Shown here piece after piece: positions 1-50,851 of a stretch of DNA of 64,000 nt. The notes beneath the pieces are model-generated. The model searched no databases. It was not told the origin of the DNA and worked only from the letters and a program-made list of their open reading frames with translations. Position 1 is the stretch's first letter. Each line of letters begins with the position of its first letter. Position numbers and translations under genes: made by a program. This DNA comes from Acidimicrobiales bacterium. GTDB lineage: Bacteria; Actinomycetota; Acidimicrobiia; Acidimicrobiales; CAIXPF01. The stretch is from the NCBI GenBank assembly GCA_046155365.1, contig JBJXFH010000124.1, forward strand, positions 1,249-65,248. Direction: 5' to 3'.

Positions 1-3000
1 CTCCGCGAAGGCCGCCTGACCGGTACCGACGGCCACGGTGACCGTGTCCAGGTACCGCTGGGCGTAGCGTTCGTCCTGGTAGACGGCCAGATCCGCTGCC
101 CGCAACCGGACCAGGCGACCCAGCTCACCCTCACCCAACCCGGCGGCCACGATGGCGGCCTCAACTTGGGGGGAGGGCTTGGCCAGCTGATCCTCGGGCA
201 GGACCGACGCGGCGCGCACCACAGCCGGATCCAGCGTCCACTGCCGGCCCCAACGGAATGCCAGCAGGTTGGCCTCCACCGCCGCCCCGTTGAGCTCGAT
301 GGCCTGTTCGATGGCCCCGGCGGAGATGGGCAGCACCCCCAGCTGGTAGGCGGCGCCGATGAGGAACGTGTTGGCGGTGGTGGACTCCCCGAACAGGCCC
401 TCCGTCACCGCCACCGTGTCCAGGTAACGGTTGTGCTCGGCCCGGGTCACGGAGTCCAGTTCGGCCCGCAGGGAGGCGAGTTCGGGGAACTTGGCGTTGG
501 GATCGCGGACCATGAAGCCGGTGGCGGTCTTGGTGGTGGAGGCCACCGCCACGGTGCGGGCCGCGGAAACCCCGTCCAGGTTGGCCGGGGCCAGGCCCAC
601 CAGCAGGTCGAACACCAGGTACACATCCGCGGAGCCCGAAGTCAGCTTGTTCGTCCCCTCCACGTGCTCGGTGGTGATGCGCAGGTCAGATACCACCGGC
701 CCGGCCTTCTGGGACAGCCCGGTCTGGTCCAACCCGCCCACGTTCTTGCCGTCGAGGGTGGCGGCGGTGCCCAGGATCTGGGACACGGTGACCACCCCGG
801 TGCCGCCCACGCCGGGCATGCGGATGGTGGTGTCATCGGCCGGTACCAGCAACGTGGGTTCCGGCAGCGAGGCGGCGTCGATGGCCGGTCGGCGCCGGGC
901 GCCACCCCCGGCCCGGTTGACGCTGCCGGCCTTGCCACCAGCGGCCCCGACGGCCCCCACGCCGGCGAGCTTCATGACCTTGCCCACCAGCGGCAGGCGG
1001 GCCATCAGCCCGGCCTTGGTGGTCCCCTTGGGCACCACGGTCAGGAACGACGGGCAGTCCCCGGCCAGGCAGGAGTAGTCCTTGTTGCAGGAGGACTGGT
1101 GGATGACGGTCTTGCGGCCGAACTCGGTGTCGATGGGCTGCACCGACAAGCAGTTGGACTGCACGCCGCAATCCCCGCAGCCCTCGCAGACCCGTTCGTT
1201 GATCACCACCCGTTCGGCCGGTTCTACCGTGATCCCGCGCTTGCGGTCCCGGCGCTTTTCGGCGGCGCACTGCTGATCGTGGATCAACACCGTGGTGCCC
1301 GGCACCTTGGCCAGCACCTCCTGGGCCTCGATGATGCGGTCCCGGTCCCACACCTCCACCCCCGCGGCCAGCTTCACGCCGCGGTATTTGTCCCGCTCAT
1401 CGGTGGTGACGATGACCTTGGCCGCACCCTCCGCCAGCAGCCACTGCGTCAACTGCGGCACCGCCATGGCCCCGGCCGCGTCCTGGCCGCCGGTCATGGC
1501 CACGGCGCCGTTGTAGAGGATCTTGTAGGTGATGTTGGAACCCGCCGCCACCGCGGAGCGCACACACAGCGATCCGGAGTGCGCGAAGGTGCCGTCGCCC
1601 AGGTTCTGGGTGAAGTGCGCCACGTCCACGAACGGTTCGATGCCGACCCACTGCACACCCTCGCCGCCCATCTGGGTGTTGCCCATCAAGGTGCCCACCC
1701 GGTCCGGGGCCATCAACGTGACCAGCCCGTGGCAGCCGATGCCGGAACCCACCAGCTCACCCTCGGGGACCTTGGTGCCGGTGGAGTGGGGGCAGCCGGA
1801 GCAGAAGTACGGGGTGCGGGTGGGCAGCAGGTTGATCTTCTTGCGGGTGGACTTCTCCACCGGCGGGGTCAACCGCTGCGGGTCGATCTTCACCGTCAGC
1901 CGCCGCCGCAACGGCTCCACCAGGTAATCGGTGTCCAACGCCCCGTAGCCGGGGATCAGCTTGTTGCGATCAGGATCGAACTTGCCGGTCACCCGGGGGG
2001 CGTCGGGCATGCCGTAGAGGGCGTCGCGGAGGTGGCTCTCGATGAACGGGCGCTTTTCCTCGATGACCATGATCTCGTCCAGGCCATCGGCGAAACGGCG
2101 GGCGATCTCCCCCTCGAAGGGATGGATCATGCCCAGCTGCAACAGCCGCACCCCGTTGCGGGCCAGACCGTCCTCGTCCAGGCCCAACAGGGCGCAGGCG
2201 GCCAGCATCTCGTGATAGCAGCGACCGGAGGCCACCAACCCCAACCAGGCGTCGGTGGGGTTGATTGTGATGCGGTTGAGGTGGTTGGCGATGGCGTAGC
2301 GCCGGGCCATCTCGTATTTGGCCTCGTAGATCTCCTGCTCCATGGCGTTGGCCTGGGGACCGCCGAGGCGGCTGTTGACCTTGGGTACGTAGGGCTTGCC
2401 CTGCCATTCGAAGTCCGGATGGACCGGCACGATGCGGCCCGGCCCGGCCTCCGCGGTGGCCGAACCGTCCGCTACCGCGGTCACAATCTTGATGGCGGAC
2501 CACAACCCGCTGGCCCGGGAGATGCCCACCCCGTGACGGCCCAGGTCCAGCACCTCTTGCACGTTGCCCGGTTGCAGGATGGTCTGATGCAAGTCCGCCA
2601 GCGAGTACTCCGAGGCCGACGGCAGCGTGGAGGACTTGTTGGACGGATCGTCCCCGGTCAGGGCCAGTACCCCACCCCAGGGATGGGTGCCGGCGTAGGC
2701 CGCATGCCGGAAGGCGTCCCCGGAACGGTCCAGGCCGGGGGATTTGCCGTACCAGATGCCCAACACGCCATCGAAGCGCTGCTTGGGGAATGTGGAGGAC
2801 AACTGGCTGCCCATCACCGCGGTGGCCCCCAGTTCCTCGTTGAGGCCCGGCCGGTGCACGATGTTGAGCGGGTCCAGCAACTTCTTGTGGGAGATGATCT
2901 CCCGGTCGTACCCGCCCAGCGGGGAGCCCTGGTAGCCGGACACGAAGGTGGCGGTGCGCTTGCCGGCGGCGCGGTCCGCTCGCATCTGGTCGATGGGTAC

Positions 3001-3108
3001 CCGGACCAGGGCCTGGACCCCGGTGAAGAAGAACGAGCCGGACTCCTCCCGGTACTTGGCGTCCAGATCAAACGTCGCCGAGGACCGCTCAGGCATCACT
3101 TCGGTCAT
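1..3108 (-). CDS. indolepyruvate/2-oxoacid:ferredoxin oxidoreductase family protein, large fused type (3' end runs off the window)
   Basis: My own reverse-complement translation from ATG (plus 3106-3108) gives MTEVMPERSSATFDLDAKYREESGSFFFTGVQALVR. An internal ...RTPYFCSGCPHSTGT... Cys motif lies near 1780-1830. The frame stays open to position 1 (1036 codons). It is absent from the ORF track because no stop lies in the window. The 166-3336 + ORF is its antisense shadow. Confidence 0.8.
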   Translation of the reverse strand, partial: MTEVMPERSSATFDLDAKYREESGSFFFTGVQALVRVPIDQMRADRAAGKRTATFVSGYQGSPLGGYDREIISHKKLLDPLNIVHRPGLNEELGATAVMGSQLSSTFPKQRFDGVLGIWYGKSPGLDRSGDAFRHAAYAGTHPWGGVLALTGDDPSNKSSTLPSASEYSLADLHQTILQPGNVQEVLDLGRHGVGISRASGLWSAIKIVTAVADGSATAEAGPGRIVPVHPDFEWQGKPYVPKVNSRLGGPQANAMEQEIYEAKYEMARRYAIANHLNRITINPTDAWLGLVASGRCYHEMLAACALLGLDEDGLARNGVRLLQLGMIHPFEGEIARRFADGLDEIMVIEEKRPFIESHLRDALYGMPDAPRVTGKFDPDRNKLIPGYGALDTDYLVEPLRRRLTVKIDPQRLTPPVEKSTRKKINLLPTRTPYFCSGCPHSTGTKVPEGELVGSGIGCHGLVTLMAPDRVGTLMGNTQMGGEGVQWVGIEPFVDVAHFTQNLGDGTFAHSGSLCVRSAVAAGSNITYKILYNGAVAMTGGQDAAGAMAVPQLTQWLLAEGAAKVIVTTDERDKYRGVKLAAGVEVWDRDRIIEAQEVLAKVPGTTVLIHDQQCAAEKRRDRKRGITVEPAERVVINERVCEGCGDCGVQSNCLSVQPIDTEFGRKTVIHQSSCNKDYSCLAGDCPSFLTVVPKGTTKAGLMARLPLVGKVMKLAGVGAVGAAGGKAGSVNRAGGGARRRPAIDAASLPEPTLLVPADDTTIRMPGVGGTGVVTVSQILGTAATLDGKNVGGLDQTGLSQKAGPVVSDLRITTEHVEGTNKLTSGSADVYLVFDLLVGLAPANLDGVSAARTVAVASTTKTATGFMVRDPNAKFPELASLRAELDSVTRAEHNRYLDTVAVTEGLFGESTTANTFLIGAAYQLGVLPISAGAIEQAIELNGAAVEANLLAFRWGRQWTLDPAVVRAASVLPEDQLAKPSPQVEAAIVAAGLGEGELGRLVRLRAADLAVYQDERYAQRYLDTVTVAVGTGQAAFAE

Positions 3109-3216
3109 GGTCTTCCCCCGATTCGAGCAACGGTGCGCCCGCAGCGTAACCGTCACACGCCAGCAGAGCTCCGGTACCTCGCTTGGGGGTTGCCCCGTTG
3201 GGATAGGATCCCCGGC

Positions 3217-3336
3217 ATGGAACAGGACATCCTTGTGACCAACAGCCCCGATTTCGACGCCGATGTGGACGACCTGCTCGAGGACGAGCTGCTGGTCGAT
3301 GAGATCTCCATCGACGGCATGTGCGGGGTCTACTGA
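3217..3336 (+). CDS. mftA: mycofactocin precursor peptide MftA (39 aa)
   Basis: ATG at 3217 and TGA at 3334-3336. Peptide is MEQDILVTNSPDFDADVDDLLEDELLVDEISIDGMCGVY: an acidic leader with the C-terminal IDGMCGVY signature of MftA. AGGA sits about 9 nt upstream. MftB-like and rSAM-SPASM genes follow directly. Confidence 0.9.
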   Translation: MEQDILVTNSPDFDADVDDLLEDELLVDEISIDGMCGVY

Positions 3337-3626
3337 GCTCGTCCGTCGCCCCTACCCCCGGCCTCGACCGGGCGTTGGAGCTGCACCCTCAGGTCGCGCT
3401 GCGGCCTGAGCCCTTCGGCGCGCTTGCGTACCACTACGGAAATCGCCGCCTGATCTTCCTCCGTCACCCCGACATGGTGGCGGTGGTGAAGGCGCTGGCG
3501 GCCCACCCGGATCTCGGCGCCACCCTCGCCGCCTGCGGTGTTGACCCCCAACGGTGGCCTTCGTTCGTGAAGGCCCTGGCCAAGCTCGAAGGATCGGAGA
3601 TCATCCGTGCCCGCCAAGAAGACTGA
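3321..3626 (+). CDS. mftB: mycofactocin biosynthesis chaperone MftB (RRE-type peptide-binding protein)
   Basis: ...LELHPQVALRPEPFGALAYHYGNRRLIFLRHPDMVAVVKAL... matches the MftB pattern. It sits between mftA and mftC. The start is uncertain: ATG 3321 overlaps mftA, and an in-frame TTG about 50 nt downstream is an alternative. Confidence 0.8.
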   Translation: MRGLLSSSVAPTPGLDRALELHPQVALRPEPFGALAYHYGNRRLIFLRHPDMVAVVKALAAHPDLGATLAACGVDPQRWPSFVKALAKLEGSEIIRARQED

Positions 3627-4758
3627 AACGCTGGCCACCCAGCTCAAATCGGGCCTCGACGCCCCCATTTGTCTCACCTGGGAGCTGACCTACGCCTGCA
3701 ACCTGGCGTGTGTGCACTGCCTGTCCTCATCCGGCCAGCGGGACCCCCGGGAGCTGTCCACCGCGGAGGCCATGCAGGTCATCGACGAGCTGCGTGCGCT
3801 CCAGGTGTTCTACGTGAACATCGGCGGTGGTGAGCCGATGATCCGGCGGGACTTCTTCGAGATCGTCAACTACGCGGTGAACTCGGGGGTGGGGGTCAAG
3901 TTCTCCACCAACGGCGCCTACATCGACGCCGCCCGGGCCCGTGAGCTGGCCGCCATGGACTACCTGGACATCCAGCTCAGCCTGGACGGCGCCGACGCCG
4001 CCACCAATGACGCGGTGCGGGGCGAGGGTTCCTACGCCACCGTGCGCCGGGCCATGGACCACCTGGCGGCAGCCAACTTCGGCCCGTTCAAGGTGTCAGT
4101 GGTGGTCACCCGCCACAACGTGGACCAACTCGACGCCTTCAAGGCCCTCACCGATAGCTACGGCGCCCAGCTGCGGGTCACCCGGCTGCGGCCCGCCGGC
4201 CGGGGCGCGGACACCTGGCATGAGCTGCACCCCACCGCCGAACAGCAGGTCCAGGTGTACCGCTGGCTGCTCCGCCACGGCGAGGACGTGCTCACCGGGG
4301 ACTCGTTCTTCCACCTCAACGCCCTGGGTGAGTCCCTGCCCGGGCTCAACCTGTGCGGCGCCGGTCGAGTGGTGTGTCTCATCGATCCCGTCGGGGACGT
4401 GTACGCCTGCCCGTTCGTGATCCATGAGGATTTCAAGGCCGGCTCGGTCCGTGACCCCGGTGGCTTCGCCCGGGTGTGGCGCCAAAGCGAGCTGTTCCTG
4501 TCCCTGCGGGAGCCGGAGAACCCCGGCGCCTGCGCCAGCTGCGGCAGCTATGACGCTTGCCAGGGCGGTTGCATGGCGGCCAAGTTCTTCACCGGTCTGC
4601 CCCTGGATGGGCCCGATCCCGAGTGCGTCACCGGCCACGGCGCCCCGCTGGTGGCGGCGGTGACCGCCGGCAGCGCCCCCCGCCCGTCGCTGGATCACTC
4701 CAAGCCCACCCCGGTCCGTTTGGGCCGCAAACCGGTCCCGCTCACCGTCGCCCGCTGA
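3607..4758 (+). CDS. mftC: mycofactocin radical SAM maturase MftC (rSAM + SPASM domain)
   Basis: CNLACVHC (CX3CX2C) rSAM motif near the N-terminus, GGGEP motif, and a Cys-rich C-terminal SPASM region (CGAGR...CPF...CASCGSYDACQGGC). GTG start overlaps mftB by 20 nt. Confidence 0.9.
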   Translation: MPAKKTETLATQLKSGLDAPICLTWELTYACNLACVHCLSSSGQRDPRELSTAEAMQVIDELRALQVFYVNIGGGEPMIRRDFFEIVNYAVNSGVGVKFSTNGAYIDAARARELAAMDYLDIQLSLDGADAATNDAVRGEGSYATVRRAMDHLAAANFGPFKVSVVVTRHNVDQLDAFKALTDSYGAQLRVTRLRPAGRGADTWHELHPTAEQQVQVYRWLLRHGEDVLTGDSFFHLNALGESLPGLNLCGAGRVVCLIDPVGDVYACPFVIHEDFKAGSVRDPGGFARVWRQSELFLSLREPENPGACASCGSYDACQGGCMAAKFFTGLPLDGPDPECVTGHGAPLVAAVTAGSAPRPSLDHSKPTPVRLGRKPVPLTVAR

Positions 4759-4870
4759 CGGTCCCCGGCGCGGCGAGACCTGGTACTACGACCCTTGTCC
4801 GATGACAGGGTGTGCGAGCGCCGTTACGGTCCGGCGGCAGCCCCGAGAACCGGGCAGGCAGGAGAGACAA

Positions 4871-6412
4871 ATGCGTGTCCGAGTTGTGATCACGATGTTG
4901 AGCGTGGTGCTCGCAAGCCTGGCGGCCATTGATTCGGCGGGCGCCGCCCCACCATCAGCGTTGACGCTCAGCCCCACCAGCGTGACGGGCGGAAGCTCCT
5001 CGACCGCCACCGTAACCCTCAACGCCGATGCGCCGTCGGGGGGCACCGTCGTCACCCTCACGGACAATTCGGCGGCCACCACCGTGCCGGCAACTGTCAC
5101 CGTCACGGCAGGGAACCGAACCCGGTCCTTCACTGTCACCACCACCGCGGTGACCGCGGTGACGACGTCCACGATCACCGCATCGGCGGATGGCGTTTCT
5201 CAGAACGCGGTGCTCACCGTGAACCCGCCAAGGCCGGGGACCCCGTCCACCGTAGCGCCCGCCAACGACGCCACTGTGGCCCAGCCGATCACGTTCGATT
5301 GGACCGACGTCGCCAACGCGGTTGGCTACGAGATCCAAATCGACAACTCGTCGACCATCGCCGCGCCCTACGTCTTTAGCCAGGCCGTGAGCAGCTCGCA
5401 GACCTCGATCAGTGGCTTGCCGGCGCAGCGGCTGTGGTGGCGTGTCCGAGCGCAGAACTCCGCCGGGCAGTACGGCTCCTACTCGAGCACCCGGCGCTTC
5501 ACCGCCCTTGCCCCGCCAACGGCTGCCAGCCTGTCGTCGGTGACCGTGGCCCCCACAAGTGTCGACGGCGGATCCCCGGCCACCGGGACCATTTCGCTCA
5601 GTTCCGCCGCCCCGTCCGGTGGCGCGGCGGTGACCCTTGCCAGCAGCAACTCGAGTGTCGCAAGCGTTCCGGCCAGTGTCACCGTCCCCGCCGGTGCGAC
5701 CAGTGCGACCTTCCCGCTAACCACAACCACCGTTTCCGCCCAAACCGCGGTCACGATCACCGCCACCGCGGGCAGCGTCACGCTCACGGCGACGATCACG
5801 ATCAATCCCGAAGCCGCGGTGGTCATCACCGCCGATGGTCCATTAGGTCCCGGTTTCGTGGGCTCGGACTTTGTTACCTATGCCACGCTGGGGACGGTCA
5901 TCGCTCTCGGCGGCCCGGCCGTGGGACCCGTCGAGTTCGGGGTGACCGCGGGGCAGCTTCCGGCCGGTCTCCGGCTCGAGGACGTGAACACCAGCGGAAC
6001 CCCGGCCAAGCACACCTGGGTGTCCGTCGTCGGCGTGCCCACCAGCGTCGGGACGAGCAGTTTCAGCGTCACCCTGACCGACGCCAACGGCGTGTCCCGC
6101 ACCGGCACCTACACCATCACCGTCAATCCCGCCCTGACGCTCGTTATCAACCTGCAGGAGCCGTGGACGCCCGTCGTCGGGACCTTCTCGAATCTCTGGA
6201 TCGATGCCACTGGCGGCTCCCGGCCGTACCGCTGGGCCGTGACTGGCGGTGCCCTGCCACCGGGGATGTCCCTGGTCCAGGACAATCCTGATGGCCCGCT
6301 CGTGCGCATCACCGGTACGCCCACAGCCGCCGGGGCGTTCACCTTCACGCTGCGCTTGACCGATGCCACCGGTGCCACGGTGAGCCGGGTGATCACGGTC
6401 ACGGTGGGCTAG
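4871..6412 (+). CDS. secreted multi-domain repeat protein (two ~90-aa beta-rich repeats, FN3-like module, putative-Ig/cadherin-like repeats)
   Basis: GGAGAG RBS then ATG 4871. Signal-peptide-like MRVRVVITMLSVVLASLAAIDSAGAAPP. Internal repeat SPTSVTGGSS..APSGG..VTL..VPA.VTV.AG....F.. occurs twice. Also W.W.V.A-type FN3-like module (WWRVRAQNSAGQYG) and G.LP.G...... repeats. Confidence 0.75.
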   Translation: MRVRVVITMLSVVLASLAAIDSAGAAPPSALTLSPTSVTGGSSSTATVTLNADAPSGGTVVTLTDNSAATTVPATVTVTAGNRTRSFTVTTTAVTAVTTSTITASADGVSQNAVLTVNPPRPGTPSTVAPANDATVAQPITFDWTDVANAVGYEIQIDNSSTIAAPYVFSQAVSSSQTSISGLPAQRLWWRVRAQNSAGQYGSYSSTRRFTALAPPTAASLSSVTVAPTSVDGGSPATGTISLSSAAPSGGAAVTLASSNSSVASVPASVTVPAGATSATFPLTTTTVSAQTAVTITATAGSVTLTATITINPEAAVVITADGPLGPGFVGSDFVTYATLGTVIALGGPAVGPVEFGVTAGQLPAGLRLEDVNTSGTPAKHTWVSVVGVPTSVGTSSFSVTLTDANGVSRTGTYTITVNPALTLVINLQEPWTPVVGTFSNLWIDATGGSRPYRWAVTGGALPPGMSLVQDNPDGPLVRITGTPTAAGAFTFTLRLTDATGATVSRVITVTVG

Positions 6413-6527: not shown

Positions 6528-8480
6528 ATGGTGCAACTGTGCGACCCGCTACCTCTCGGGCCGCGCACGGCCCCCTCGGCGGTCCTCTTCGGGCCCATCG
6601 TCACCAACCTCGGCACCGACGAGCGTGCCCTCAGCGACCGCCATTGCGCCTTCTACGCCCGTCGGGCCCGGGGCGGCGCAGGGGTCGTCGTGGTTGAAGG
6701 TGCCAGTGTGCATCCGCTCGCCTGGCCCTACGAGCGGGCGCCGCTGGCCGAACGCTGCGGGCCGGGATGGGCCGCCATCGCCAGCGCCTGCCACGACCAC
6801 GGCGCGTTGGTGCTGGCCAGCTTGGATCACGCCGGTGGGCAGGGTTCCTCCGCCTACAGCCAGCGCGAATTGTGGGCTCCCAGCCGGGTTCCCGAGGTCA
6901 ACAGCCGCGAGGTTCCCAAGTGGATGGAACCGGGTGACATCAACGAGGTGATCGAGGGGTTTGCGGCCGCCGCAGCTTGGGCCCGGGCCGCCGGTCTGGA
7001 CGGCGTCGAGATCAACTGCGGCCAGCACAGCCTGCTGCGGCAGTTTCTTTCCGGTCTGACCAATCACCGGGATGACGAGTACGGCCAGGACCGTTTGCTG
7101 CTGGCCCGCCGGGTGCTGGGCGTGGTCCGCGCCGCCGTCGGGGCCGACCTGGTGGTGGGCCTGCGGCTGTGCGCCGACGAGCTGGCGCCGTGGGCAGGCA
7201 TCACCCCCGAGATGGCCCCCGACATCGCCAACGGCCTCATCACCGGGGTCAATGGTGTGGTGGCGGTCGACTATCTGACCGTGGTTCGCGGGTCGATCTT
7301 CTCGGTGGAAAAGACCCGGTCCGATTACCACGAGCCGCCCAACTACAACTGGGAGCTGTGCCGGTCGCTGCGGGCGGCGGTGCCTGAATCGGTGAAGGTG
7401 TTCCTGCAGGGCTCGGTGGTGGACCCCGCAGCCGCCGAGGCCGCCCTGGAGCAGGGTGTGGCCGAAGGGGTGGAGATGACCCGGGCGCTGCTGGCCGATC
7501 CCGATCTGGTGCACAAAGTCCGCAACGGCATGGCCGAGCGGGTCCGGCCCTGCCTGCGCTGTAACCAGAGCTGCCAGGTGCGCGACGCCCGCAACCCCCT
7601 CATCACCTGCGTGGTGGAGCCCTCCACCGGCCACGAGCTGGACGATCCCTGCTGGGAGGAGCCGGCGCCCCGCCCCCTCCGTATGGCGGTGGTAGGCGGT
7701 GGGCCCGCCGGCATGGAAGCGGCCCGGGTGGCAGCCGCCCGAGGCCATCAGGTGACCGTGTTCGAGGCCGGTGACCGGCTCGGAGGGTTGCCGGCGGTGT
7801 GCGGACCGGCCGGGCCGCTGGTGGCGTGGCAGGAGCGCGAGCTGGACCGCCTGGCGGTGGACGTCCGGCTCAACACCACCTGGGATGGGAACCAGGGGTT
7901 CGACGTGGTCATCGGCGCCGTCGGGGCCCGGGCCGGCGAACGCCCGTTCGAGGCGGACCCTGACGCCACCGTGATCGACGTGGCCTCGTTGCGGTTGGGT
8001 CGGGTGGCGTTGCCGCCGGAAGGTTCGGTGGTGCTGTTCGATCCCATCGGCGGGCCCATCGCGGTGGAGCTCGCCACCGAGCTGGGGGAGCGGGCGGTGC
8101 TGGTCACGCAGGACAACATCGCCGGCAACGAGCTGTCGCGCAGCGGTGACCTGGCCCCGGCCAACGTGCGCCTGCAACAACGGCAGGTCCGCATCGTGCG
8201 CCGCGCCCTGTTGCGCTCGGTACACGCCGATCACGTGATGGTCGAGGACCGTTACAGCGGGCAGCAGTCCCGTATCGAGGCGGTCGTCACCGTGGACTGC
8301 GGGTTCCGGCAGCCCGAACCGGCCCCCGCCGGCGTCGACATTGCCGCCGGGGACCTGGTGGCTCCCCGCACGGTGCTCGAGGCGGTCCTCGACGCCCGGC
8401 GAGCGGTCCTGGCCGCAGAAGCGTTGACCGCCGCAGGCCCTCCGTCCCGCCCCGTCGCCGAGCCCGGAGCTGCCCGATGA
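6528..8480 (+). CDS. FadH/OYE-family NADH:flavin oxidoreductase with 4Fe-4S and FAD/NAD(P) domain (mycofactocin-system OYE paralog 1-like)
   Basis: TIM-barrel OYE region (DGVEINCGQHSLLRQFLS), Cys cluster RPCLRCNQSCQVRDARNPLITC, and Rossmann motif VAVVGGGPAGMEAA. ATGA overlap with the next paralog. Confidence 0.8.
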   Translation: MVQLCDPLPLGPRTAPSAVLFGPIVTNLGTDERALSDRHCAFYARRARGGAGVVVVEGASVHPLAWPYERAPLAERCGPGWAAIASACHDHGALVLASLDHAGGQGSSAYSQRELWAPSRVPEVNSREVPKWMEPGDINEVIEGFAAAAAWARAAGLDGVEINCGQHSLLRQFLSGLTNHRDDEYGQDRLLLARRVLGVVRAAVGADLVVGLRLCADELAPWAGITPEMAPDIANGLITGVNGVVAVDYLTVVRGSIFSVEKTRSDYHEPPNYNWELCRSLRAAVPESVKVFLQGSVVDPAAAEAALEQGVAEGVEMTRALLADPDLVHKVRNGMAERVRPCLRCNQSCQVRDARNPLITCVVEPSTGHELDDPCWEEPAPRPLRMAVVGGGPAGMEAARVAAARGHQVTVFEAGDRLGGLPAVCGPAGPLVAWQERELDRLAVDVRLNTTWDGNQGFDVVIGAVGARAGERPFEADPDATVIDVASLRLGRVALPPEGSVVLFDPIGGPIAVELATELGERAVLVTQDNIAGNELSRSGDLAPANVRLQQRQVRIVRRALLRSVHADHVMVEDRYSGQQSRIEAVVTVDCGFRQPEPAPAGVDIAAGDLVAPRTVLEAVLDARRAVLAAEALTAAGPPSRPVAEPGAAR

Positions 8481-10471
8481 TCCCCGGCGCCGCCAGTGGG
8501 TACCGGTTTCTGTGGACCCCGTTGCAGCTGGGCCCGGTACGGACCCTCAACCGCATCGTGTTCTCAGCTCATCTCACCAACTACGCCCAGGGTGGCCGCC
8601 CCTCCGAGCAACACGCCGCCTATTACGAGGCTCGGGCAGCGGGTGGAGCCGGGCTGATCATCACCGAGGAACACTCGACCCACCCCACCGACTGGCCCTA
8701 CGAGAAGTTGATCCACGGGTTCCACCGTGAGGTCATCCCCGGCTACCGGCGCATCACCGAGGCTGTGCACCGCCACGGCACCCCGATCCTGGCGCAGCTC
8801 AACCACAACGGCGGCCAGGGCGGTTCGATGTACTCCCGGCTGCCGGTCTGGGCCCCTTCGGCGGTGGCCGATCCGTTATTCCGGGAAGTGCCCAAGGCCA
8901 TCACCCACGCCGAGATCGCCGAGGTCATCGCCGGTTACGCCCAGGTGGCCACGTACTGCGCTGAGGGCGGATTTGACGGCATTGAACTGCAATGCAGCCA
9001 TTCCTCCATTGTGCGGGGTTTCCTGTCCCCGGCCACCAACCGCCGTACCGATGAGTATGGCGGTTCACTGGAGAACCGGGCCCGGCTGTTGGTGCAGATC
9101 GTGCACGCCGTGCGCCAGGCCATCGGGCCCGGGCTGGCGTTGGGAGTGCGGCTGTGCGGGGACGAGCTCATCGAGGGCGGCACCACCATTGATGACGCCG
9201 TGGCCCTGGCGGTCATGGTGGAGGCCACCGGCAAGGTGGATTACCTCAACACCTCCATCGGGGTGGCCACCGCCAGCCTGTTCATGATCGAGGCGTCCAT
9301 GCACGTCCCGCCGGGCTACTCGCTGTTCATCCCCTCGGCGCTGCGGCGGGCCACCAACCTGCCCGTGGTCGGGGTGGGCCGCTTCAAGGATCCGCTGCAG
9401 GCCGAACGGGCCCTGGCCGAAGGTCATTGCGATCTGGTGGGGGTGGTCCGGGGTCAGATCGCGGACCCCGACTTCGCCGCCAAAGCCCGCTCCGGCAACG
9501 CCGAACAGATCCGGTTGTGTTTGTCCTGCAATCAGGAATGTGTGGGCCGCATGGGCCTCAACCGTTGGCTGGGCTGCATCGAGAACCCCCACACCGGGCG
9601 GGAGGCGATCAGGGCCGCCACGCTTGCCAGCTCCACCAGGTTCCCGAGGCGGGCAGTGTCGCGCCGGGTACTGGTCATCGGGGCCGGTCCGGCCGGGTTG
9701 CAAGCCGCCATCGCCGCCGCCCGGGGTGGCCATAAAGTCACGGTGTGGGAAAGCCACCACGCCGCCGGTGGCCTGGTTCGGGTGGCCGCCACCGTGCCCA
9801 ATCGCGCCGAGCTGGGTGACCTGGTCCGCAACCAGCTCATCGAGAGCCGCCGCCTCGGTGTGGAGATCCGCTACGACATCCACGCCGACGCCGCCGCTAT
9901 CACCGACATGGCGCCCGACCACGTGGTGGTGGCCACCGGTTCCCGACCGGCCCGGCCGTGGTGGGCCCCGCCCGAACTGCAGCGCATCGTGGACGTTCGT
10001 GACGTCCTTGAGGATGACGCCGCGCCCCAGGGCGAGGTGCTGGTCATCGATGAGATCGGTTTCCACCACGCCACCTCGGTGGGCGAGCTGCTGGCGGATC
10101 GGGGCTGTCGGGTGGAGATCGCCACCAACGGCATGGTGGTGGGCCAGGACCTGGGCGTCACGTTGGACATGGAGCTGTGGTGGATGCGGGCCACCCACAA
10201 GGGCATCTCGCAGACCACGGACCTGGTGCCCATGGGCTGCCGGGCCGAAGGTGCCCAGGTGGTTTTGGACCTGCTGCACCATCCCACCGGCCAGATGCAG
10301 GCCCGCATCGTGGACTGGGTGGTGTTGGCCGTGCCCCCCAGCCCCGCCGACGAGCTCTATCACCAACTACGCGCCGCCGGCGTGGTGGTGGAGCGGGTGG
10401 GCGATTGTGTCGCCCCCCGCCGGGCCCATGCCGCGGTGATCGATGGGGAGCGGGTGGGCAGCGCCATCTGA
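8477..10471 (+). CDS. FadH/OYE-family NADH:flavin oxidoreductase with 4Fe-4S and FAD/NAD(P) domain (mycofactocin-system OYE paralog 2-like)
   Basis: DGIELQCSHSSIVRGFLSPATNRRTDEYGGSLENRARLL, Cys cluster RLCLSCNQECVGRMGLNRWLGC, and VLVIGAGPAGLQAA. Confidence 0.85.
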   Translation: MIPGAASGYRFLWTPLQLGPVRTLNRIVFSAHLTNYAQGGRPSEQHAAYYEARAAGGAGLIITEEHSTHPTDWPYEKLIHGFHREVIPGYRRITEAVHRHGTPILAQLNHNGGQGGSMYSRLPVWAPSAVADPLFREVPKAITHAEIAEVIAGYAQVATYCAEGGFDGIELQCSHSSIVRGFLSPATNRRTDEYGGSLENRARLLVQIVHAVRQAIGPGLALGVRLCGDELIEGGTTIDDAVALAVMVEATGKVDYLNTSIGVATASLFMIEASMHVPPGYSLFIPSALRRATNLPVVGVGRFKDPLQAERALAEGHCDLVGVVRGQIADPDFAAKARSGNAEQIRLCLSCNQECVGRMGLNRWLGCIENPHTGREAIRAATLASSTRFPRRAVSRRVLVIGAGPAGLQAAIAAARGGHKVTVWESHHAAGGLVRVAATVPNRAELGDLVRNQLIESRRLGVEIRYDIHADAAAITDMAPDHVVVATGSRPARPWWAPPELQRIVDVRDVLEDDAAPQGEVLVIDEIGFHHATSVGELLADRGCRVEIATNGMVVGQDLGVTLDMELWWMRATHKGISQTTDLVPMGCRAEGAQVVLDLLHHPTGQMQARIVDWVVLAVPPSPADELYHQLRAAGVVVERVGDCVAPRRAHAAVIDGERVGSAI

Positions 10472-10526
10472 CATCGAGCGGCACCGCGAATGTTGCACGC
10501 CGTTCCCGTCCGCCACGAACAGCTCT

Positions 10527-11111
10527 ATGCTGCTGGACATGACTGCCAAGCCTTCCTACCTGGGTCTTCTCAACGCCATCAGCAACGCGGAGGGTGACGC
10601 CGAGTGCTTCTTGGGCGCGTGGGCCAAGACCACCACCCGAGATGATGTGCGTTCCATCATCAACACCGTCGCGCTGCGTGAGGGCGAGCACGCCAAGGCC
10701 TTCGCCAAGCGGATGTGTGAACTGGGTTTCGACGTGATGCCCAAGCAGGATCCCCGACTCGAGGAGAAAATGGCCATCGCCAGCTCCTGCGAGTTGAGTG
10801 ATCTTGAAAAGTTCCAGCGACTGGAGCTTGGTCTGGCCCCCGTTGAGGGCAAACCGGACATCTTCGCTTCGATGTTGGCTGATTCCTCCATCGACATCCA
10901 GACCGGGGCGCTTTTGGGTCGCTACATTGCTGAGGAGCGTGACAGCGGTCGTCTGTTCCAGTCCTGCCGTGGAGTTCTTGAGTCCGAGTGCGCACAGGAC
11001 GCCAATGCCACCATGAAAGCCGCCGTGACCAGCACGAACGGTGCTGCACCGGACCGTTTGGATCGCATCGAGGCGCTGCTGGAGCGGTTGGCGCAAAAAC
11101 TGGAAGCCTGA
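10527..11111 (+). CDS. hypothetical helical protein, possible ferritin-like fold
   Basis: ORF in the 10443-11111 frame with likely ATG at 10527 or 10539. Contains ...NAEGDAECF... and ...REGEHAKAF... (E ... ExxH half-site). Predicted helical with a coiled C-terminus. Noticeably more T/A-ending codons than its neighbours. Confidence 0.5.
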   Translation: MLLDMTAKPSYLGLLNAISNAEGDAECFLGAWAKTTTRDDVRSIINTVALREGEHAKAFAKRMCELGFDVMPKQDPRLEEKMAIASSCELSDLEKFQRLELGLAPVEGKPDIFASMLADSSIDIQTGALLGRYIAEERDSGRLFQSCRGVLESECAQDANATMKAAVTSTNGAAPDRLDRIEALLERLAQKLEA

Positions 11112-11230
11112 CCTCGGGCCGTGATTGGGGCTTGGTCCAGAGCTTGCTACGGCTGCGGCCAAGCCCCAGGGCTCGCGTAGACTTCCCCACGCCGGGCTGA
11201 GCTGAGCCGGTTAACCAGGTCGACGGTGGG

Positions 11231-12124
11231 TTGATCTGGATGTTGTGTTGGCGGAAATCGCCGGCCACCGGCGCTGGCGGCAGCGGGAGAGGGGCTAGTC
11301 CCTTGCAGACAACGGACAATGACAACGTGGCAACGGTCGCGGGCAGCGAGGAACCGATTGCCCAGCAATGGGCTCGGTACGGGCACGTGGTGCTGAACCA
11401 GCTGGTGGAACCCGCCGCCGTGCGTGAGGTCGGCACCATCATCGACGAGGTGTATGAGGGGTTCGACCAGCTCAAACCCGGTCCCCCCAGTGTTCGGGCC
11501 CGCCTTTTCGGGTACACCGTGCCCCCGCCCACCACCAAGTTCCTGCGTCCGGATGGCCAGGCCGGTTCTCTGGAAGTGAACTGGTTCACCAGGATCCGCC
11601 CCGAGGTCCGGGAGGGCACGCTGTTCCGGGCTCTGGAACGGGTGGCGGGGGAGCTGCTGGGCTGCGAACCGCAGTTCTACTTTGACCACGTGATCCGCAA
11701 GCCGGCGCAGATCGGCACCGGCACCTCGTGGCATCAGGACCGGGCCTACAACATGATGGAGATCCAGCGTCAGCGGGTGAACTTCTGGATACCCATGGCT
11801 GACACCGATGCCGCCGGGGGGTGCATGCAGTTCGTGCGCGGCAGCCACCTGAACGGGTTGCTCGGCCACCACCCGCTGCCGGATGATCCCACCAAGTACG
11901 CCCTCGAAGCAGACGGTGATCATGATCCGTCGGCCTTCCCGGTGCCGCTGCGGGCGGGCGGTGCGTCCATCCACCATCCACTGACCCTGCACAAGACGGC
12001 GCCCAACACGTCCCTCAACACCCGCTCGGCGTGGATCGTGCATTTCATTCGGCCACGTACAGTGGCGGAGCGGGTAAGCTTCGCCACTCGAAGGCTGCGT
12101 CCGGCCCAACCGCGACGGCTGTGA
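11231..12124 (+). CDS. phytanoyl-CoA dioxygenase (PhyH) family Fe(II)/2-oxoglutarate oxygenase
   Basis: TSWHQDRAY (HxD) plus distal His (IHHPLTLHKTAPN). Typical PhyH N-terminus WARYGHVVLNQLV. The true start is probably downstream of 11231 (ATG 11240 or a GTG near 11326). Confidence 0.75.
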   Translation: MIWMLCWRKSPATGAGGSGRGASPLQTTDNDNVATVAGSEEPIAQQWARYGHVVLNQLVEPAAVREVGTIIDEVYEGFDQLKPGPPSVRARLFGYTVPPPTTKFLRPDGQAGSLEVNWFTRIRPEVREGTLFRALERVAGELLGCEPQFYFDHVIRKPAQIGTGTSWHQDRAYNMMEIQRQRVNFWIPMADTDAAGGCMQFVRGSHLNGLLGHHPLPDDPTKYALEADGDHDPSAFPVPLRAGGASIHHPLTLHKTAPNTSLNTRSAWIVHFIRPRTVAERVSFATRRLRPAQPRRL

Positions 12125-12161
12125 TCGATACCGACCGAACGAAGGAAGTGAGCTGACCCCG

Positions 12162-13073
12162 GTGAAGCGCACTGTCGGCGTCATCGTCCCGGTGTACAAC
12201 GGGGCAGACTTCGTGCACCAAGCCTTGGCCTCCCTGGTCGCACAGTCGCGCCAGGTCGACCAGGTGGTGGTCATCGACGACGGTTCGGTGGACGAGTCCC
12301 TGACCAAGATCAAAGAGTGGACCGACCGGTTGCCGCTCACCGTCCTCGAGCAAGGTGCCAATGGCGGGGTCAGCGCCGCCCGTAACGCCGGGCTCGACGC
12401 GCTGGACACCGATTTGGTGGCGCTGCTCGATGCCGATGACGTGTGGTTTCCCGACCACGTGGAATTGTGCGTGCAGGCGCAGGACCGCTTCGGGGGCATC
12501 ATCTCACCTGGGGCCTTCATCTGGCACCCCGGTGGCTCGCTGCGGCCGTACAACAAGCAGCTACGCCTTGAGGTCCCGGCGCCACACAAGCAGCTGGCAT
12601 CGCTATTGCACCGGAACTTCGTGTTCGTGAGCGCCATGGTGGAGCTGGCCGAGGTCAAAGCCCAGGGTGGGTTCCGGCCGCACACGGTGGAGGACTGGGA
12701 CCTGTGGTTGCGGTTGGTGGCCAAGGGCTTGGTGGTCACCCAACTGGATCGGCCCACGGTGCTGTACCGGCGTCATCCGGGCAACTTCAGCCGGATGCGG
12801 TCCACCATCGTGCGCCAGGAGATCGAGCTGCTCGAACGGTTCCGCACCGAGCTGCCCGACCGTTACCAGCCGGTTATCCGTCGATCGGTCCGCCACCGTC
12901 AGAGTGAGTTGCAGGTGGCTGAGCACCTCGAAGCGGGGGACTACACCCGCCGGCAGATCCCGGCGTCGATGATGATCGGGGCCTTTCGCGGCGGCTGGCG
13001 GTCCAAGCTCAAGGCGTCCGTCGTGGTGGCGGCTCCCCGGTTGGCGTCGCGGCTGCACAACGATCGCCGCTGA
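12162..13073 (+). CDS. family 2 glycosyltransferase
   Basis: VGVIVPVYNGADFV, VVVIDDGSVDES, ARNAGL, LLDADDVW and EDWDLWLRL motifs. Paralogous to the two GT2s at 21.1-23.3 kb. Confidence 0.8.
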   Translation: MKRTVGVIVPVYNGADFVHQALASLVAQSRQVDQVVVIDDGSVDESLTKIKEWTDRLPLTVLEQGANGGVSAARNAGLDALDTDLVALLDADDVWFPDHVELCVQAQDRFGGIISPGAFIWHPGGSLRPYNKQLRLEVPAPHKQLASLLHRNFVFVSAMVELAEVKAQGGFRPHTVEDWDLWLRLVAKGLVVTQLDRPTVLYRRHPGNFSRMRSTIVRQEIELLERFRTELPDRYQPVIRRSVRHRQSELQVAEHLEAGDYTRRQIPASMMIGAFRGGWRSKLKASVVVAAPRLASRLHNDRR

Positions 13074-13138
13074 GCAACCGGCCTGGACGGGCCGCTACCG
13101 CCAGCGTTCGTGCTGAGGGCGGCGATGATCCGTGTGGC

Positions 13139-14554
13139 TCAGACCGGGGTGGGGGACGCTGCTTCGTCCATGGCGGGGCCCGAAGCCGAATTCGGTGTTG
13201 GCCCGGCCTGGTGTGACCTGGGTGGGCGGCGGATGGCCAGTGACACGTAGACCAGGTAGGCCGCTTGGCTGGTGGTGGTGACCAGCGCCGCGCCCACGAG
13301 GCCGTAGCGCCCCACCGCCAGCGTGATGGTGGTGGCCGTGATCACCGCCGCCAGGGTCAATGCCCGAGAGCTGGTACCGGGCCGGCCTTCCGCTTGGAGG
13401 GCCTGGCCGATGACGTTGGCCAGATCGAAGCAGACCTGGCCCGGCAGCAGCACGTACAGCGGGTTGAGCGAGCCCCGGAAGCTCTTCCCGAACAGCAGCG
13501 GGATCACGAACCCGGCGCTGAGCCCGATCGTTGTGGCCATCCCGATGGAACACACCGACATCCAGCGCAGACCCCGACGCAAGGTGGCGCGGCGGGCGGC
13601 ATGGTCAGGGGCGTCACGGATGTGCGGGAACACCGCCAGGCCCATCCCCACCGCCAGCGCCCCGCTGACCCCGGCCGCGGTCACCGCCACCGCGTACAAG
13701 CCCAGCTGTTCGGAGGCCACCAGACCCACCATCACGATCTGGTCCAACCGGCCCACCATCATCTGAGCCACCGAGCCCAACGCCACCCGCCAGCCGTAAT
13801 CCAGCTGCTTGCGGAAGGCGGACCACGAAAACCCCCGTGAGGGCCAACCCCAGGCGAACGTGAAGGTCACCGCGGCCGCGCCCAGGTTGGAAAAGAACGA
13901 GGCTTGCAGCGCGGAGATCAGGTTCAGGCGGTCCGTCAGGAACAACACCATGATCACCAGCGAGTTGCTGAGCAGCGCCAGGTGCCGTAAGGCGTTGAAG
14001 CGGACGTTGTCGCCCCGGCCGTTCACGTAGTTCAGGCAGGAGTACTGCGGGAGGATCGTCAGCGCCGCCAGCAGGAACAACCGGAACCAGATGACGGTGG
14101 CCGGGTCGTGGTCGTTGAGGTAGCGCGGGACGAACGGCCAGATCACCGCCACCACCGGTAACCCGACCAGCAGCGAGAAGAACCATGCCGACATGTTCAG
14201 CTCTCGCCGGTTCATGGTGGTGGCGTGGTACGCCGTCGCGGCAGGGATACCGAAGGTGGCCAACCACCCGAACAGTTGGGTGCCAACCAGCACCGCAGCC
14301 AGATCGCCCCGGCCCTCCGCGTCCAGTGCCCGAGCCAACATCGGGCCAGTGAGCACGCTCAGGCCGTACACGAACAGCTGGGAACCGGCGGTGAGCAGCG
14401 AGTCTCGTTGGTGCCGGTCCATTCCCGCCAGGCGTCGACCCAGGCCGCCGGGCAGGCGCAACGCCGAGGGCATCAACGGTGAGGAGCCGGGGCCAAGGAG
14501 GGCAACGCTGGGGGCATTGCGGTGTCTTTCTGCTGGGATCGGTTCTGCGGCCAT
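13139..14554 (-). CDS. polysaccharide/oligosaccharide flippase (MOP/Wzx-like) membrane protein
   Basis: 471-aa ORF that is highly hydrophobic with many predicted TM segments. It lies at the end of a sugar-biosynthesis operon. The start is uncertain. Confidence 0.7.
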   Translation of the reverse strand: MAAEPIPAERHRNAPSVALLGPGSSPLMPSALRLPGGLGRRLAGMDRHQRDSLLTAGSQLFVYGLSVLTGPMLARALDAEGRGDLAAVLVGTQLFGWLATFGIPAATAYHATTMNRRELNMSAWFFSLLVGLPVVAVIWPFVPRYLNDHDPATVIWFRLFLLAALTILPQYSCLNYVNGRGDNVRFNALRHLALLSNSLVIMVLFLTDRLNLISALQASFFSNLGAAAVTFTFAWGWPSRGFSWSAFRKQLDYGWRVALGSVAQMMVGRLDQIVMVGLVASEQLGLYAVAVTAAGVSGALAVGMGLAVFPHIRDAPDHAARRATLRRGLRWMSVCSIGMATTIGLSAGFVIPLLFGKSFRGSLNPLYVLLPGQVCFDLANVIGQALQAEGRPGTSSRALTLAAVITATTITLAVGRYGLVGAALVTTTSQAAYLVYVSLAIRRPPRSHQAGPTPNSASGPAMDEAASPTPV

Positions 14555-14654
14555 GTGCGGCGTTGTCCGACGCGGGGCAGGGCGTCAGAGCCTACTGAAC
14601 GCCCCCGGGCCGTCCGACCGCACCGCTGGCGCGGCGTGGGACGCAACCGACCAC

Positions 14655-15260
14655 TCAGGATGCCACCGGAACCAAACCGCGTTCCTCGTCGAGCAGCTCG
14701 TAACGCTCACCGCACGGACAGCGCAACTGCTCATCCAGCCTGGTGGCGCAGGCGCACACCCAGCCGATGCGCCGGGCGGGGTTGCCTGCCACCAGGGCGT
14801 GGGCGGCAACGTTGCGGGTGACCACCGCGCCGGCGGCCACAAAGGCCCGGGTGCCGATGGTGGTGCCGCAGACAATGGTGGCGTTGGCGCCGATGGTGGC
14901 CCCGGCCCGAACCAAGGTGGGCACCAGGGCGTCCCCGGAGCGCTTGATGTCCGCCCTGGGCAGCAGGTCATTGGTGAAGATCATGGCTGGACCCAGAAAC
15001 ACGTCGTCCTCAACGGTGACCCGGTCCCAGACCAACACCCCGTTCTTGACCGTTACCCGATTCCCCACCCGGGCGCCGGCCTCGATGAAGGCGTGGCCGC
15101 AGATGTTGCACCCGCCACCCACCACCGCGCCGGCCATGACATGAGCGAAGGCCCACACCCGGGTGCCGGGGCCGACCTGGTCGCTCTCGCACAGACCTCG
15201 GGGATGCACGAACACCTCGGCCCGGTCACCGTCGAGGTCCGCTGGCACCTTGTGGGTCAT
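14655..15260 (-). CDS. left-handed beta-helix N-acetyltransferase (WbpD/WlbB-like)
   Basis: Hexapeptide repeats. ...FLGPAMIFTNDLLPRA...GATIGANATIVCGTTIGTRAFVAAGAVVTRNV...VAGNPARRIGW aligns by eye to WbpD-type 3-amino-sugar acetyltransferases. ATGA-type overlap with the upstream aminotransferase. Confidence 0.8.
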   Translation of the reverse strand: MTHKVPADLDGDRAEVFVHPRGLCESDQVGPGTRVWAFAHVMAGAVVGGGCNICGHAFIEAGARVGNRVTVKNGVLVWDRVTVEDDVFLGPAMIFTNDLLPRADIKRSGDALVPTLVRAGATIGANATIVCGTTIGTRAFVAAGAVVTRNVAAHALVAGNPARRIGWVCACATRLDEQLRCPCGERYELLDEERGLVPVAS

Positions 15261-16378
15261 GCCAGCACCGCCTTGTGCAGGGACTCAACCACCCGCTCCT
15301 GTTGGGCGGCGGTGATGCCTGGGAACAACGGCAGTGACAACAACTCGGCGGCGGCGGCCTCAGCGACAGGGGCGGGGGCGTGGTCTCCGAGTGCGGCGAA
15401 CGCCGGTTGCAGGTGGATCGGTTGGGGATAGTGAATGCCCACGCCCACCCCGTCGGCCTCCATCGCCGCCAGCACGCGGTCGCGCTCCGCGACCCGGGTG
15501 ACATAGAGGTGCCACACGTGCACGTTGCCCGGCGCGGTGGCCGGGGTGCGGACGCCGGTGACGGTGCCCAGCAGGTCCTCGTAGCGGGCCGCGGCGTCCC
15601 GGCGCAGTTGGTTCCAGGACTCCAACCGGGCCAGTTTGGCGTTCAACGCCACCGCTTGCAGGGTGTCCAGCCGGGAGTTCATGCCGATCATGGAGTGCAC
15701 GTACTTGCGCTCGCTGCCGTGGTTGCGAAGGCAGCGCACGGTGGCCGCCAGCTCGGCGTCGTTGGTCAGTACCGCCCCGCCGTCACCGTAGGCCCCCAGG
15801 TTCTTGCCCGGGTAGAAGCTGGTAGCGGCCACCCGACCGAAGTTGCCCATGGCCACCCCACCCTGACGTGCCCCCTGGGACTGGGCGGCGTCTTCCACCA
15901 GCAGCAGCCCGTGGCGGGCACACAACGCCATCAGCTCGGTCATGGGCGCCAGCTGCCCGAACAGGTGCACGGCGATGACCGCTGCGGTCCGAGGGGTGAT
16001 GGCGGCGGTCACGGCGGCAGGATCGAGCAGCAGATAGCGGTCATCGACATCCACCATCACCGCCACGGCGCCGGCTCGGACAACCGCTTCGGCGGTGGCC
16101 ACGAAGCTGTTGGTCGGCAGGATCACCTCATCGCCGGGTCCGATGCCGCCGGCCCGTAACGCCAACTCGATGGCGTCGGTGCCGTTGGCCACGCCCAGGC
16201 AATGCCCGGTGCCGCAATAGTCGGCGAAGGCCGTTTCGAAGGCGGCTACCTCGGCCCCCTCGATGAAGGCGGTTCGGCCCAGCACGTCGGCGAAACCGGC
16301 CGCTACTTCGGCTTCGATCTGCCGGTGCTGCCAGCCCAGATCAACAAAGGGGATCTTCTGAGGCGAGGTGTTGGACAC
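15257..16378 (-). CDS. DegT/DnrJ/EryC1/StrS-family sugar aminotransferase (WbpE-like)
   Basis: ANGTDAIELAL, EDAAQSQGA, SFYPGKNLGAYGDGGAV, RNHG, NSRLDTLQA motifs. Confidence 0.85.
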   Translation of the reverse strand: MSNTSPQKIPFVDLGWQHRQIEAEVAAGFADVLGRTAFIEGAEVAAFETAFADYCGTGHCLGVANGTDAIELALRAGGIGPGDEVILPTNSFVATAEAVVRAGAVAVMVDVDDRYLLLDPAAVTAAITPRTAAVIAVHLFGQLAPMTELMALCARHGLLLVEDAAQSQGARQGGVAMGNFGRVAATSFYPGKNLGAYGDGGAVLTNDAELAATVRCLRNHGSERKYVHSMIGMNSRLDTLQAVALNAKLARLESWNQLRRDAAARYEDLLGTVTGVRTPATAPGNVHVWHLYVTRVAERDRVLAAMEADGVGVGIHYPQPIHLQPAFAALGDHAPAPVAEAAAAELLSLPLFPGITAAQQERVVESLHKAVLA

Positions 16379-16441
16379 CGTGGTTCCTTCAGGGTCGGGC
16401 GACCTTGTGGGGCCGCGCAGAGGGTGCCGGGGCCCGTTGTC

Positions 16442-16486
16442 GGCCTGGTCGGCCTGGTCGGGTTGGTCGGGTTGGTCGGGTTGGTC
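16442..16486. repeat. 9-bp tandem repeat (ggcctggtc x2, gggttggtc x3) in an intra-operon spacer
   Basis: Read directly: cggcctggtcggcctggtcgggttggtcgggttggtcgggttggtcgggg. It begins 6 nt from the GT4 stop. The plus strand carries G3-N6-G3-N6-G3-N6-G4 at 16460-16490. Confidence 0.9.
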
Positions 16487-16491
16487 GGGGT

Positions 16492-17727: not shown

Positions 17728-17787
17728 GTGCCCACCCTCGTTCCCACTCCAAGCCCCCTCCGTACCGTGCGTCCAACCACCGGTTCC

Positions 17788-20973: not shown

Positions 20974-21106
20974 TTGACGCTCCTCAATGGCGCACGCCGC
21001 CGCCTGCTTCGCGGACGCCTTCGGCTTCGAACGTACGACGGACTACTTCGTCCACAACACAGTCCGATCGGCCTGTATTGGGAACGCCCGCCCTACAATC
21101 CGCCTG

Positions 21107-22117: not shown

Positions 22118-22136
22118 GCCAAGACCCCTTCCGCGC

Positions 22137-22180
22137 CGTTCATACCGTTCGCGTCGTTCGCGTCGTTCGCGTCGTTCGTG
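22137..22180. repeat. 9-bp tandem repeat (cgttcgcgt, ~3 perfect + 2 degenerate copies)
   Basis: Read directly: cgttcataccgttcgcgtcgttcgcgtcgttcgcgtcgttcgtg. It lies between the two GT2 paralogs, about 20 nt after the first stop. Confidence 0.85.
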
Positions 22181-22229
22181 CTCACCTGCCGGCAGGGTCA
22201 CCGCTACCACGGTCGCTACTGTCGGGGCG

Positions 22230-29971: not shown

Positions 29972-30157
29972 CGTCCCGACCCTGTGTTGGCGGTGCTGGT
30001 GAGGTGAGGCGCGTGGGCGGCTGCCATCGTGGCATCGTAGGACCCGGTCGGGGGGGACGGGCACGGAACGTTTACTTCGGGTGGCGCGCCAAGAGACGCC
30101 GGTTGAGCGGCCATGAGGTCAGCAACGGCGAGGGCGATCAGGGCAGACTGTCCGGTG

Positions 30158-48616: not shown

Positions 48617-50847
<2,231 letters not shown>

Positions 50848-50851
<4 letters not shown>

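Follow-up and report, generated by a model that had tools for sequence, protein, structure and literature searches.

A mycofactocin precursor gene, mftA, at the tail of a long antisense open reading frame in an Acidimicrobiales genome

The window, that is, the whole stretch of 64,000 nucleotides from an Acidimicrobiales genome that was analysed here (67.7% GC), encompasses genes of the mycofactocin system next to a divergently oriented oxidoreductase gene. The features of this locus, in window coordinates, are the following.

1 to 3108, minus strand: gene of the indolepyruvate ferredoxin oxidoreductase family (NF009589), divergent from mftA, with its 3' end beyond the window
166 to 3216, plus strand: non-coding part of a shadow ORF, made up of the antisense of the oxidoreductase gene and an in-frame intergenic stretch, recognized by codon-position GC
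3143 to 3148, minus strand: TACGCT, candidate -10 box of the divergent oxidoreductase gene, 34 nt upstream of its ATG (pattern only)
3204 to 3209, plus strand: TAGGAT, a TANNNT-type hexamer that ends 7 nt before the mftA start codon and is a candidate -10 promoter element
3217 to 3336, plus strand: mftA, mycofactocin precursor peptide gene, 39 codons (TIGR03969, PF23709, exact GenBank peptide, orthologues)
3321 to 3626, plus strand: mftB, peptide-binding chaperone for MftA (TIGR03967), overlapping the 3' end of mftA by 16 nt
3607 to 4758, plus strand: mftC, radical SAM/SPASM maturase (TIGR03962), overlapping mftB by 20 nt
6528 to 8480, plus strand: mycofactocin-system FadH/OYE family oxidoreductase 1 (OYE1; TIGR03996)
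8477 to 10471, plus strand: mycofactocin-system FadH/OYE family oxidoreductase 2 (OYE2; TIGR03997)

Translation of the plus strand from ATG 3217 to the TGA stop codon at 3334-3336 yields the peptide MEQDILVTNSPDFDADVDDLLEDELLVDEISIDGMCGVY, in exact agreement, both in coordinates and in sequence, with the initial annotation, which had placed a 39-codon ORF in the tail of a 1056-aa plus-strand ORF. The peptide consists of an acidic, variable N-terminal leader followed by the invariant C-terminal SIDGMCGVY; it terminates with ISIDGMCGVY* and thus carries the ...IDGMCGVY-COOH motif of MftA, and it is the sole ORF of the 64-kb window with a C-G-V-Y-type ending. Two family models recognize it above their cutoffs, namely TIGR03969 (42.1 bits, cutoff 25, E = 5.6e-11; peptide residues 18-39 aligned with model positions 2-23 of 23) and PF23709 (43.2 bits, cutoff 27, E = 4.3e-11), which bears out the earlier identification of the product as MftA, with its Val-Tyr end as the substrate of MftC. 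The initial annotation had also tied this reading to the two genes that follow, and these match the MftB model at 99.1 bits (TIGR03967, cutoff 33) and the MftC model at 610.1 bits (TIGR03962, cutoff 265), the latter protein containing the Pfam domains Radical_SAM (80.3 bits) and SPASM (25.1 bits). The short ORF accordingly lies directly 5' of mftB and mftC, as is characteristic of mftA.

On the plus strand, mftA makes up the last 39 codons of an ORF of 1056 aa with a TTG start (166-3336). The opposite strand is occupied by the oxidoreductase gene, which matches NF009589 at 1183.5 bits (cutoff 816), starts with the ATG at 3108 and remains open to the left edge of the window, so that the antisense relationship suggested earlier holds. 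Over positions 166-3108, the GC content of the plus frame at codon positions 1, 2 and 3 is 0.92, 0.48 and 0.66, respectively, which mirrors the pattern of a high-GC3 gene on the opposite strand, and because of this inversion the long plus-strand ORF is identified as the shadow of the oxidoreductase gene. Over 3217-3333, the corresponding values are 0.69, 0.21 and 0.87, a normal coding pattern (0.69, 0.49 and 0.90 in mftC, for comparison). The location of mftA at the tail of the 1056-aa ORF is an accident: the oxidoreductase gene has an antisense frame free of stop codons, the 108-nt intergenic region is by chance open in the same frame, and mftA therefore terminates this ORF. The open frames upstream of mftA in relatives range from 36 to 539 codons, and given that frames of up to 539 codons are found in several of them, the accident recurs. 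The locus is a clean illustration of how long antisense shadow ORFs in high-GC genomes may mask a real micro-gene, which a family-specific HMM recovers.

A scan with MftC as the query, with one genome retained per species, produced 80 related loci, nearly all from metagenome-assembled genomes (MAGs) of Acidimicrobiia, with MftC identities of 74-93%; the closest relative, locus L001 (contig JANPEN010000503.1), encodes an MftC that is 92-93% identical to that of the window. An ORF ending with ...SIDGMCGVY* is located directly 5' of mftB in each of the 72 related loci for which the upstream DNA is available, and the last nine residues of MftA are invariant in 73 sequences. At the DNA level, the last 17 codons occur in 67 distinct versions, serine being specified by AGC as well as by four TCN codons. 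The C-terminus of MftA is, judging from this codon comparison, under protein-level purifying selection, because the residues are invariant despite synonymous codon changes. The rest of the peptide is more variable, with inferred lengths of 28-65 aa (median 41; 72 loci) and Glu or Asp at residue 2 in 55 of the 72 loci. We conclude, with a probability of about 0.96, that positions 3217-3336 are a real mftA that heads an mftA-mftB-mftC operon in this Acidimicrobiales genome.

The sequence that precedes ATG 3217 can be read in two ways. The initial annotation had pointed to an AGGA about 9 nt upstream of the start codon. The motif is indeed present (3205-3208), separated from the ATG by 8 nt, and it lies inside TAGGAT (3204-3209); as a Shine-Dalgarno site it fares less well, being more likely part of a -10 hexamer. 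Among the 72 loci, 61 have a TANNNT hexamer 6-8 nt ahead of the mftA start codon, compared with 0.18 expected from the background frequency. In 35 of these 61 loci, the hexamer is TACGCT, which is not purine-rich and has no Shine-Dalgarno character; TAGGAT occurs in two, and only those look Shine-Dalgarno-like. In locus L001, the hexamer is TAGAGT, again spaced by 7 nt, which keeps to the TANNNT pattern but lacks AGGA. In Mycobacterium tuberculosis, 73% of the primary transcription start sites have a TANNNT -10 motif with its centre 7-12 bp upstream, and leaderless transcripts are abundant (PMC3898074). We consider it more likely, from the sequence pattern, that TAGGAT is a -10 box and that the mftA mRNA is leaderless, because TANNNT is found at the same distance in 61 of the 72 loci and fits the -10 position known from M. 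tuberculosis. The first transcribed nucleotide would then be the A of the mftA ATG or one next to it, with the hexamer 7 nt upstream as the promoter element, and translation of mftB and mftC would probably be coupled to that of the preceding genes, given the overlaps of 16 and 20 nt.

The alternative is a leadered mRNA, with AGGA as the Shine-Dalgarno sequence and a promoter located further upstream, in 3109-3200. The 8-nt spacer is in its favor, and so is the fact that a minority of the relatives clearly employ GGAGG upstream of mftA: of the 11 loci that lack the hexamer, 7 have a GGAGG-type site (L008, L011, L013, L023, L053, L054 and L078). Against it, apart from the L001 sequence and the prevalence of TACGCT, stands the absence of a second plus-strand TANNNT in the 108-nt intergenic region (3109-3216) that could serve as the upstream -10 box, TAGGAT being the only one. 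A leadered transcript is possible in this genome but somewhat doubtful. Across the Acidimicrobiia, mftA expression seems to alternate between two architectures, one of the TANNNT leaderless type and the other with GGAGG.

Promoter, terminator and RNA searches around the gene gave little. No sigma-70 promoter with two hexamers was found in a scan of 2900-5000 that demands an E. coli-like -35 and is thus of little weight for an actinobacterial promoter with no -35 consensus; the terminator scan of the same region returned a single terminator-like site, which is the chance level. An Rfam scan of 2800-3700 revealed neither a known riboswitch nor a leader RNA ahead of mftA: its sole match, raiA at 13.9 bits, is far below the gathering score of 101.3. 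Thirteen of the hexamers follow a TTG, which was considered as an extended -10 element (TGN) and rejected, the register being TTG-TANNNT rather than TGN-TANNNT. Our literature search on mycofactocin and leaderless transcripts found no paper on the 5' end of the mftA transcript, and no transcription start site is mapped in the MftR paper. The conserved TANNNT at the leaderless distance is a small, testable addition to what is known of mftA expression in Acidimicrobiia.

The divergent intergenic region of 108 nt also contains a single minus-strand TANNNT, the TACGCT at 3148-3143, a hexamer identical to the one that prevails ahead of mftA in the relatives. It is a candidate for a leadered promoter of the oxidoreductase gene, the ATG of which, at 3108 on the minus strand, is preceded by GGGGGAAG.

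Beyond mftC, the locus continues with the two OYE genes, which match TIGR03996 (678.3 bits, cutoff 627.9) and TIGR03997 (952 bits, cutoff 793.15), respectively; OYE1 is presumed to be a mycofactocin-dependent redox enzyme. Between mftC and OYE1, the plus strand encodes (4802-6412) a 536-aa protein rich in Thr, Ser and Ala, with a signal-like N-terminal segment and He_PIG Ig-like domains (PF05345, 54.1 bits). This protein has no NCBIfam match, its exact sequence is absent from the protein collection, and tblastn at E<=1e-10 found a homologue in none of the 80 related loci. This lack of homologues, together with a gap of only about 93 nt between mftC and OYE1 in L001, makes the gene look like an insertion into the mft locus that is specific to the lineage.

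Downstream of the OYE genes, positions 10443-23315 comprise a block of sugar and polysaccharide biosynthesis genes, with two PseC/DegT-type aminotransferases, a NeuD-type acetyltransferase, three GT2 glycosyltransferases, an NAD-dependent epimerase/dehydratase and a Gfo/Idh/MocA-type dehydrogenase. Farther away, an F420-dependent LLM-class oxidoreductase is encoded on the minus strand (29048-30118; TIGR03621, 292.5 bits, cutoff 213), and its presence suggests that redox enzymes linked to F420 operate in the organism alongside those linked to mycofactocin. The plus strand at 48086-50848 contains the Rho termination factor in a stop-to-stop open frame of 921 codons, in which the conserved core begins near residue 544, which points to a large extension at the N-terminus, as is seen in Actinobacteria.

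The NCBIfam scan, which took in nearly every plausible ORF of the 64 kb, yielded no match for MftD (TIGR03966) or MftE (TIGR03964) and no true mftF (TIGR03965), the model for which matched only far below its cutoff of 280 bits, at 62, 85 and 95 bits; these weak matches are the three GT2 genes of the sugar block and are not to be taken for mftF. Genes for MftR and MftG were not found across the window or in the neighborhoods of the related loci. In the related genomes, we surveyed the neighbors of mftC within 10 kb at the 80 loci, by cluster representatives. The most frequent families are the NDMA-dependent alcohol dehydrogenase (TIGR03989; 41 loci, often in two copies), a single cluster of OYE oxidoreductases (39 loci, in most of which mftC has OYE1-type matches of 57-71% identity on its 3' side) and PlsY (39 loci, directly 3' of mftC), followed by a HelD/HelR-like ATPase (21 loci) and acyl-CoA synthetases (15 loci). 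A true MftF (332 bits) is encoded 3' of mftC in about 14 of the 80 loci (L072 and about 13 others, 1-2 kb downstream), and neither MftD nor MftE is among the conserved neighbor families listed within 10 kb of mftC at the 80 loci. One related locus carries a mycofactocin-associated EtfA (NF038209, E = 6e-103). In Acidimicrobiia, mftABC is probably a stand-alone trio.

In the characterized pathway, MftB binds MftA, MftC catalyzes the oxidative decarboxylation of the C-terminal Tyr and its cross-linking to the preceding Val, the peptidase MftE frees the cyclized core, AHDP, the flavoenzyme MftD deaminates AHDP to the redox-active premycofactocin, and MftF then glycosylates the latter (PMC11778925). 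By analogy, MftB would bind the acidic leader of the 39-aa peptide and present the peptide to MftC, which would decarboxylate and cyclize the C-terminal Val-Tyr to form the AHDP core; the genes for the subsequent steps, namely release by MftE, deamination by MftD and glycosylation by MftF, are absent from the window. We infer that completion of the pathway in this organism rests on genes beyond the 64 kb analysed. According to Haft 2011 (PMC3023750), the MftF glycosyltransferase is universal, and MftD, MftE and MftR are present in most but not all species with mycofactocin. The lack of MftD and MftE at the locus does not go beyond this reported variation, and a simple absence of linkage may account for it.

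It is also conceivable that MftD and MftE are missing genome-wide and that mftABC gives rise to a product other than the canonical glycosylated mycofactocin, such as a peptide-bound or differently processed compound of the AHDP type. The negative results for MftD and MftE, both in the window and around mftC in 80 Acidimicrobiia species, are compatible with such a product, as are the scarcity of true MftF near mftC, in only about 14 of these species, and the precedent of mycofactocin species that lack MftD or MftE. However, mftD and mftE may be unlinked, the scope of the searches being the 64-kb window and the 10-kb neighborhoods; the survey covered cluster representatives and, in one of its summaries, 25 listed families, so that a rare or low-scoring MftE may have escaped; and the core of the MftA peptide is identical to the canonical substrate. 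We regard a non-canonical product as improbable. Were these genomes really devoid of MftD and MftE, other enzymes would have to carry out the maturation of the MftC product, unless the latter served in a different form.

A longer product, initiated at one of the in-frame codons TTG 3190 or GTG 3133 or inside the shadow ORF, is highly unlikely. Both of these codons are indeed present, and the frame is open back to 166, but neither start has comparative support. The start codon of mftA is, on the comparative data, ATG 3217, as the initial annotation had it, because of the alignment with L001 and the recurrence of Met followed by an acidic residue in the relatives. The ATG opens an 18-nt run that is identical between the window and L001, and a 15-nt in-frame indel separates the two mftA ORFs, whereas the stretch upstream of the ATG is poorly conserved between the two in both sequence and length (an intergenic region of 108 nt in the window and about 330 nt in L001). 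Among the relatives, the length of the upstream frame varies widely, from tens to hundreds of codons, while the Met with its acidic neighbor recurs 28-65 aa from the end of the peptide. Furthermore, an N-terminal extension would swallow the -10-like hexamer, the NCBI call of MftA is 39 aa long, and Haft 2011 blamed long N-terminal extensions in the MftA family on wrong start predictions (PMC3023750). Finally, the notion that 3217-3336 is no gene but a reading frame left open by chance where the shadow ORF ends, which could appeal to its being in frame with a long antisense ORF and to the abundance of spurious ORFs in a high-GC genome, is refuted: two independent curated models match it with E-values of about 5e-11, the protein is conserved across 73 sequences while synonymous codons vary, mftB and mftC adjoin it, and its GC3 of 0.87 is of the coding type.

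The gene is not new to the databases. The exact 39-aa peptide is GenBank MFN0028438.1, 'mycofactocin precursor MftA', and the exact MftB and MftC proteins are MFN0028439.1 and MFN0028440.1, respectively. For 8 of the 10 relatives looked up, MftA with the inferred start is present in public protein sets (NCBI, JGI/IMG, ENA, Logan), several of the entries bearing the name "mycofactocin precursor". The expectation of the initial annotation that a gene caller would almost certainly miss the gene does not hold for present-day pipelines, given these entries. The difficulty itself has a history: Haft 2011, who built TIGR03969, described mftA as a "missed gene call" in H37Rv and showed by six-frame search that the ORF is universally present (PMC3023750). 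The mftA of the window is an already known, annotated, ordinary member of a well-known system, since its exact peptide is named in GenBank and the family, its partners and the missed-ORF problem have been documented since 2011, and it has little importance beyond correct annotation. The only additions made here are the probable leaderless architecture and the probable stand-alone mftABC-OYE organization in Acidimicrobiia.

The window is most readily compared with L001 and the protein cluster of P0012-P0018, in which MftA (44-47 aa) shares the N-terminus MEQDILV with the window peptide. L001 displays the same divergent order of the oxidoreductase gene, mftA, mftB, mftC and OYE1, and has its TANNNT hexamer 7 nt upstream of the mftA ATG, as in the window; the window peptide is 5 residues shorter owing to the 15-nt indel, and the window, unlike L001, contains the extra gene with He_PIG domains between mftC and OYE1.

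The reference set of known MftA proteins (TIGR03969, PF23709) includes Rv0691A of M. tuberculosis and the proteins of M. smegmatis and M. ulcerans. The window peptide has in common with these its small size, a variable acidic leader, the invariant C-terminal IDGMCGVY, with seven of the last eight residues of the family invariant according to Haft 2011 (PMC3023750), and a gene immediately upstream of mftB and mftC. With 39 aa, it is inside the 28-65 aa range of Acidimicrobiia, and in its core Asp replaces Glu at position -12, a substitution seen in 2 of the 73 sequences. The window locus differs from that of mycobacteria in that it lacks the adjacent mftD-E-F and mftR that mycobacteria have; the whole intergenic region is only 108 nt long, and no TetR-family gene adjoins it. 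These features could be combined into the picture of an Acidimicrobiia module unlike the mycobacterial paradigm, with a leaderless mftA, stand-alone mftABC, links to OYE and NDMA-dependent alcohol dehydrogenases and no link to mftD, mftE or mftR, a proposition to which we assign a low likelihood.

Outside the mycofactocin family, the analogy with PqqA, the pyrroloquinoline quinone precursor, was drawn by Haft 2011 (PMC3023750). PqqA is likewise a very short ribosomal peptide that is served by a small chaperone, undergoes radical SAM/SPASM cross-linking and yields a redox cofactor; the peptide family and the cross-linked residues differ from those of MftA. The window MftC is not a member of the PqqE family, given that it matches the PqqE model at 116.5 bits, far under the cutoff of 381.
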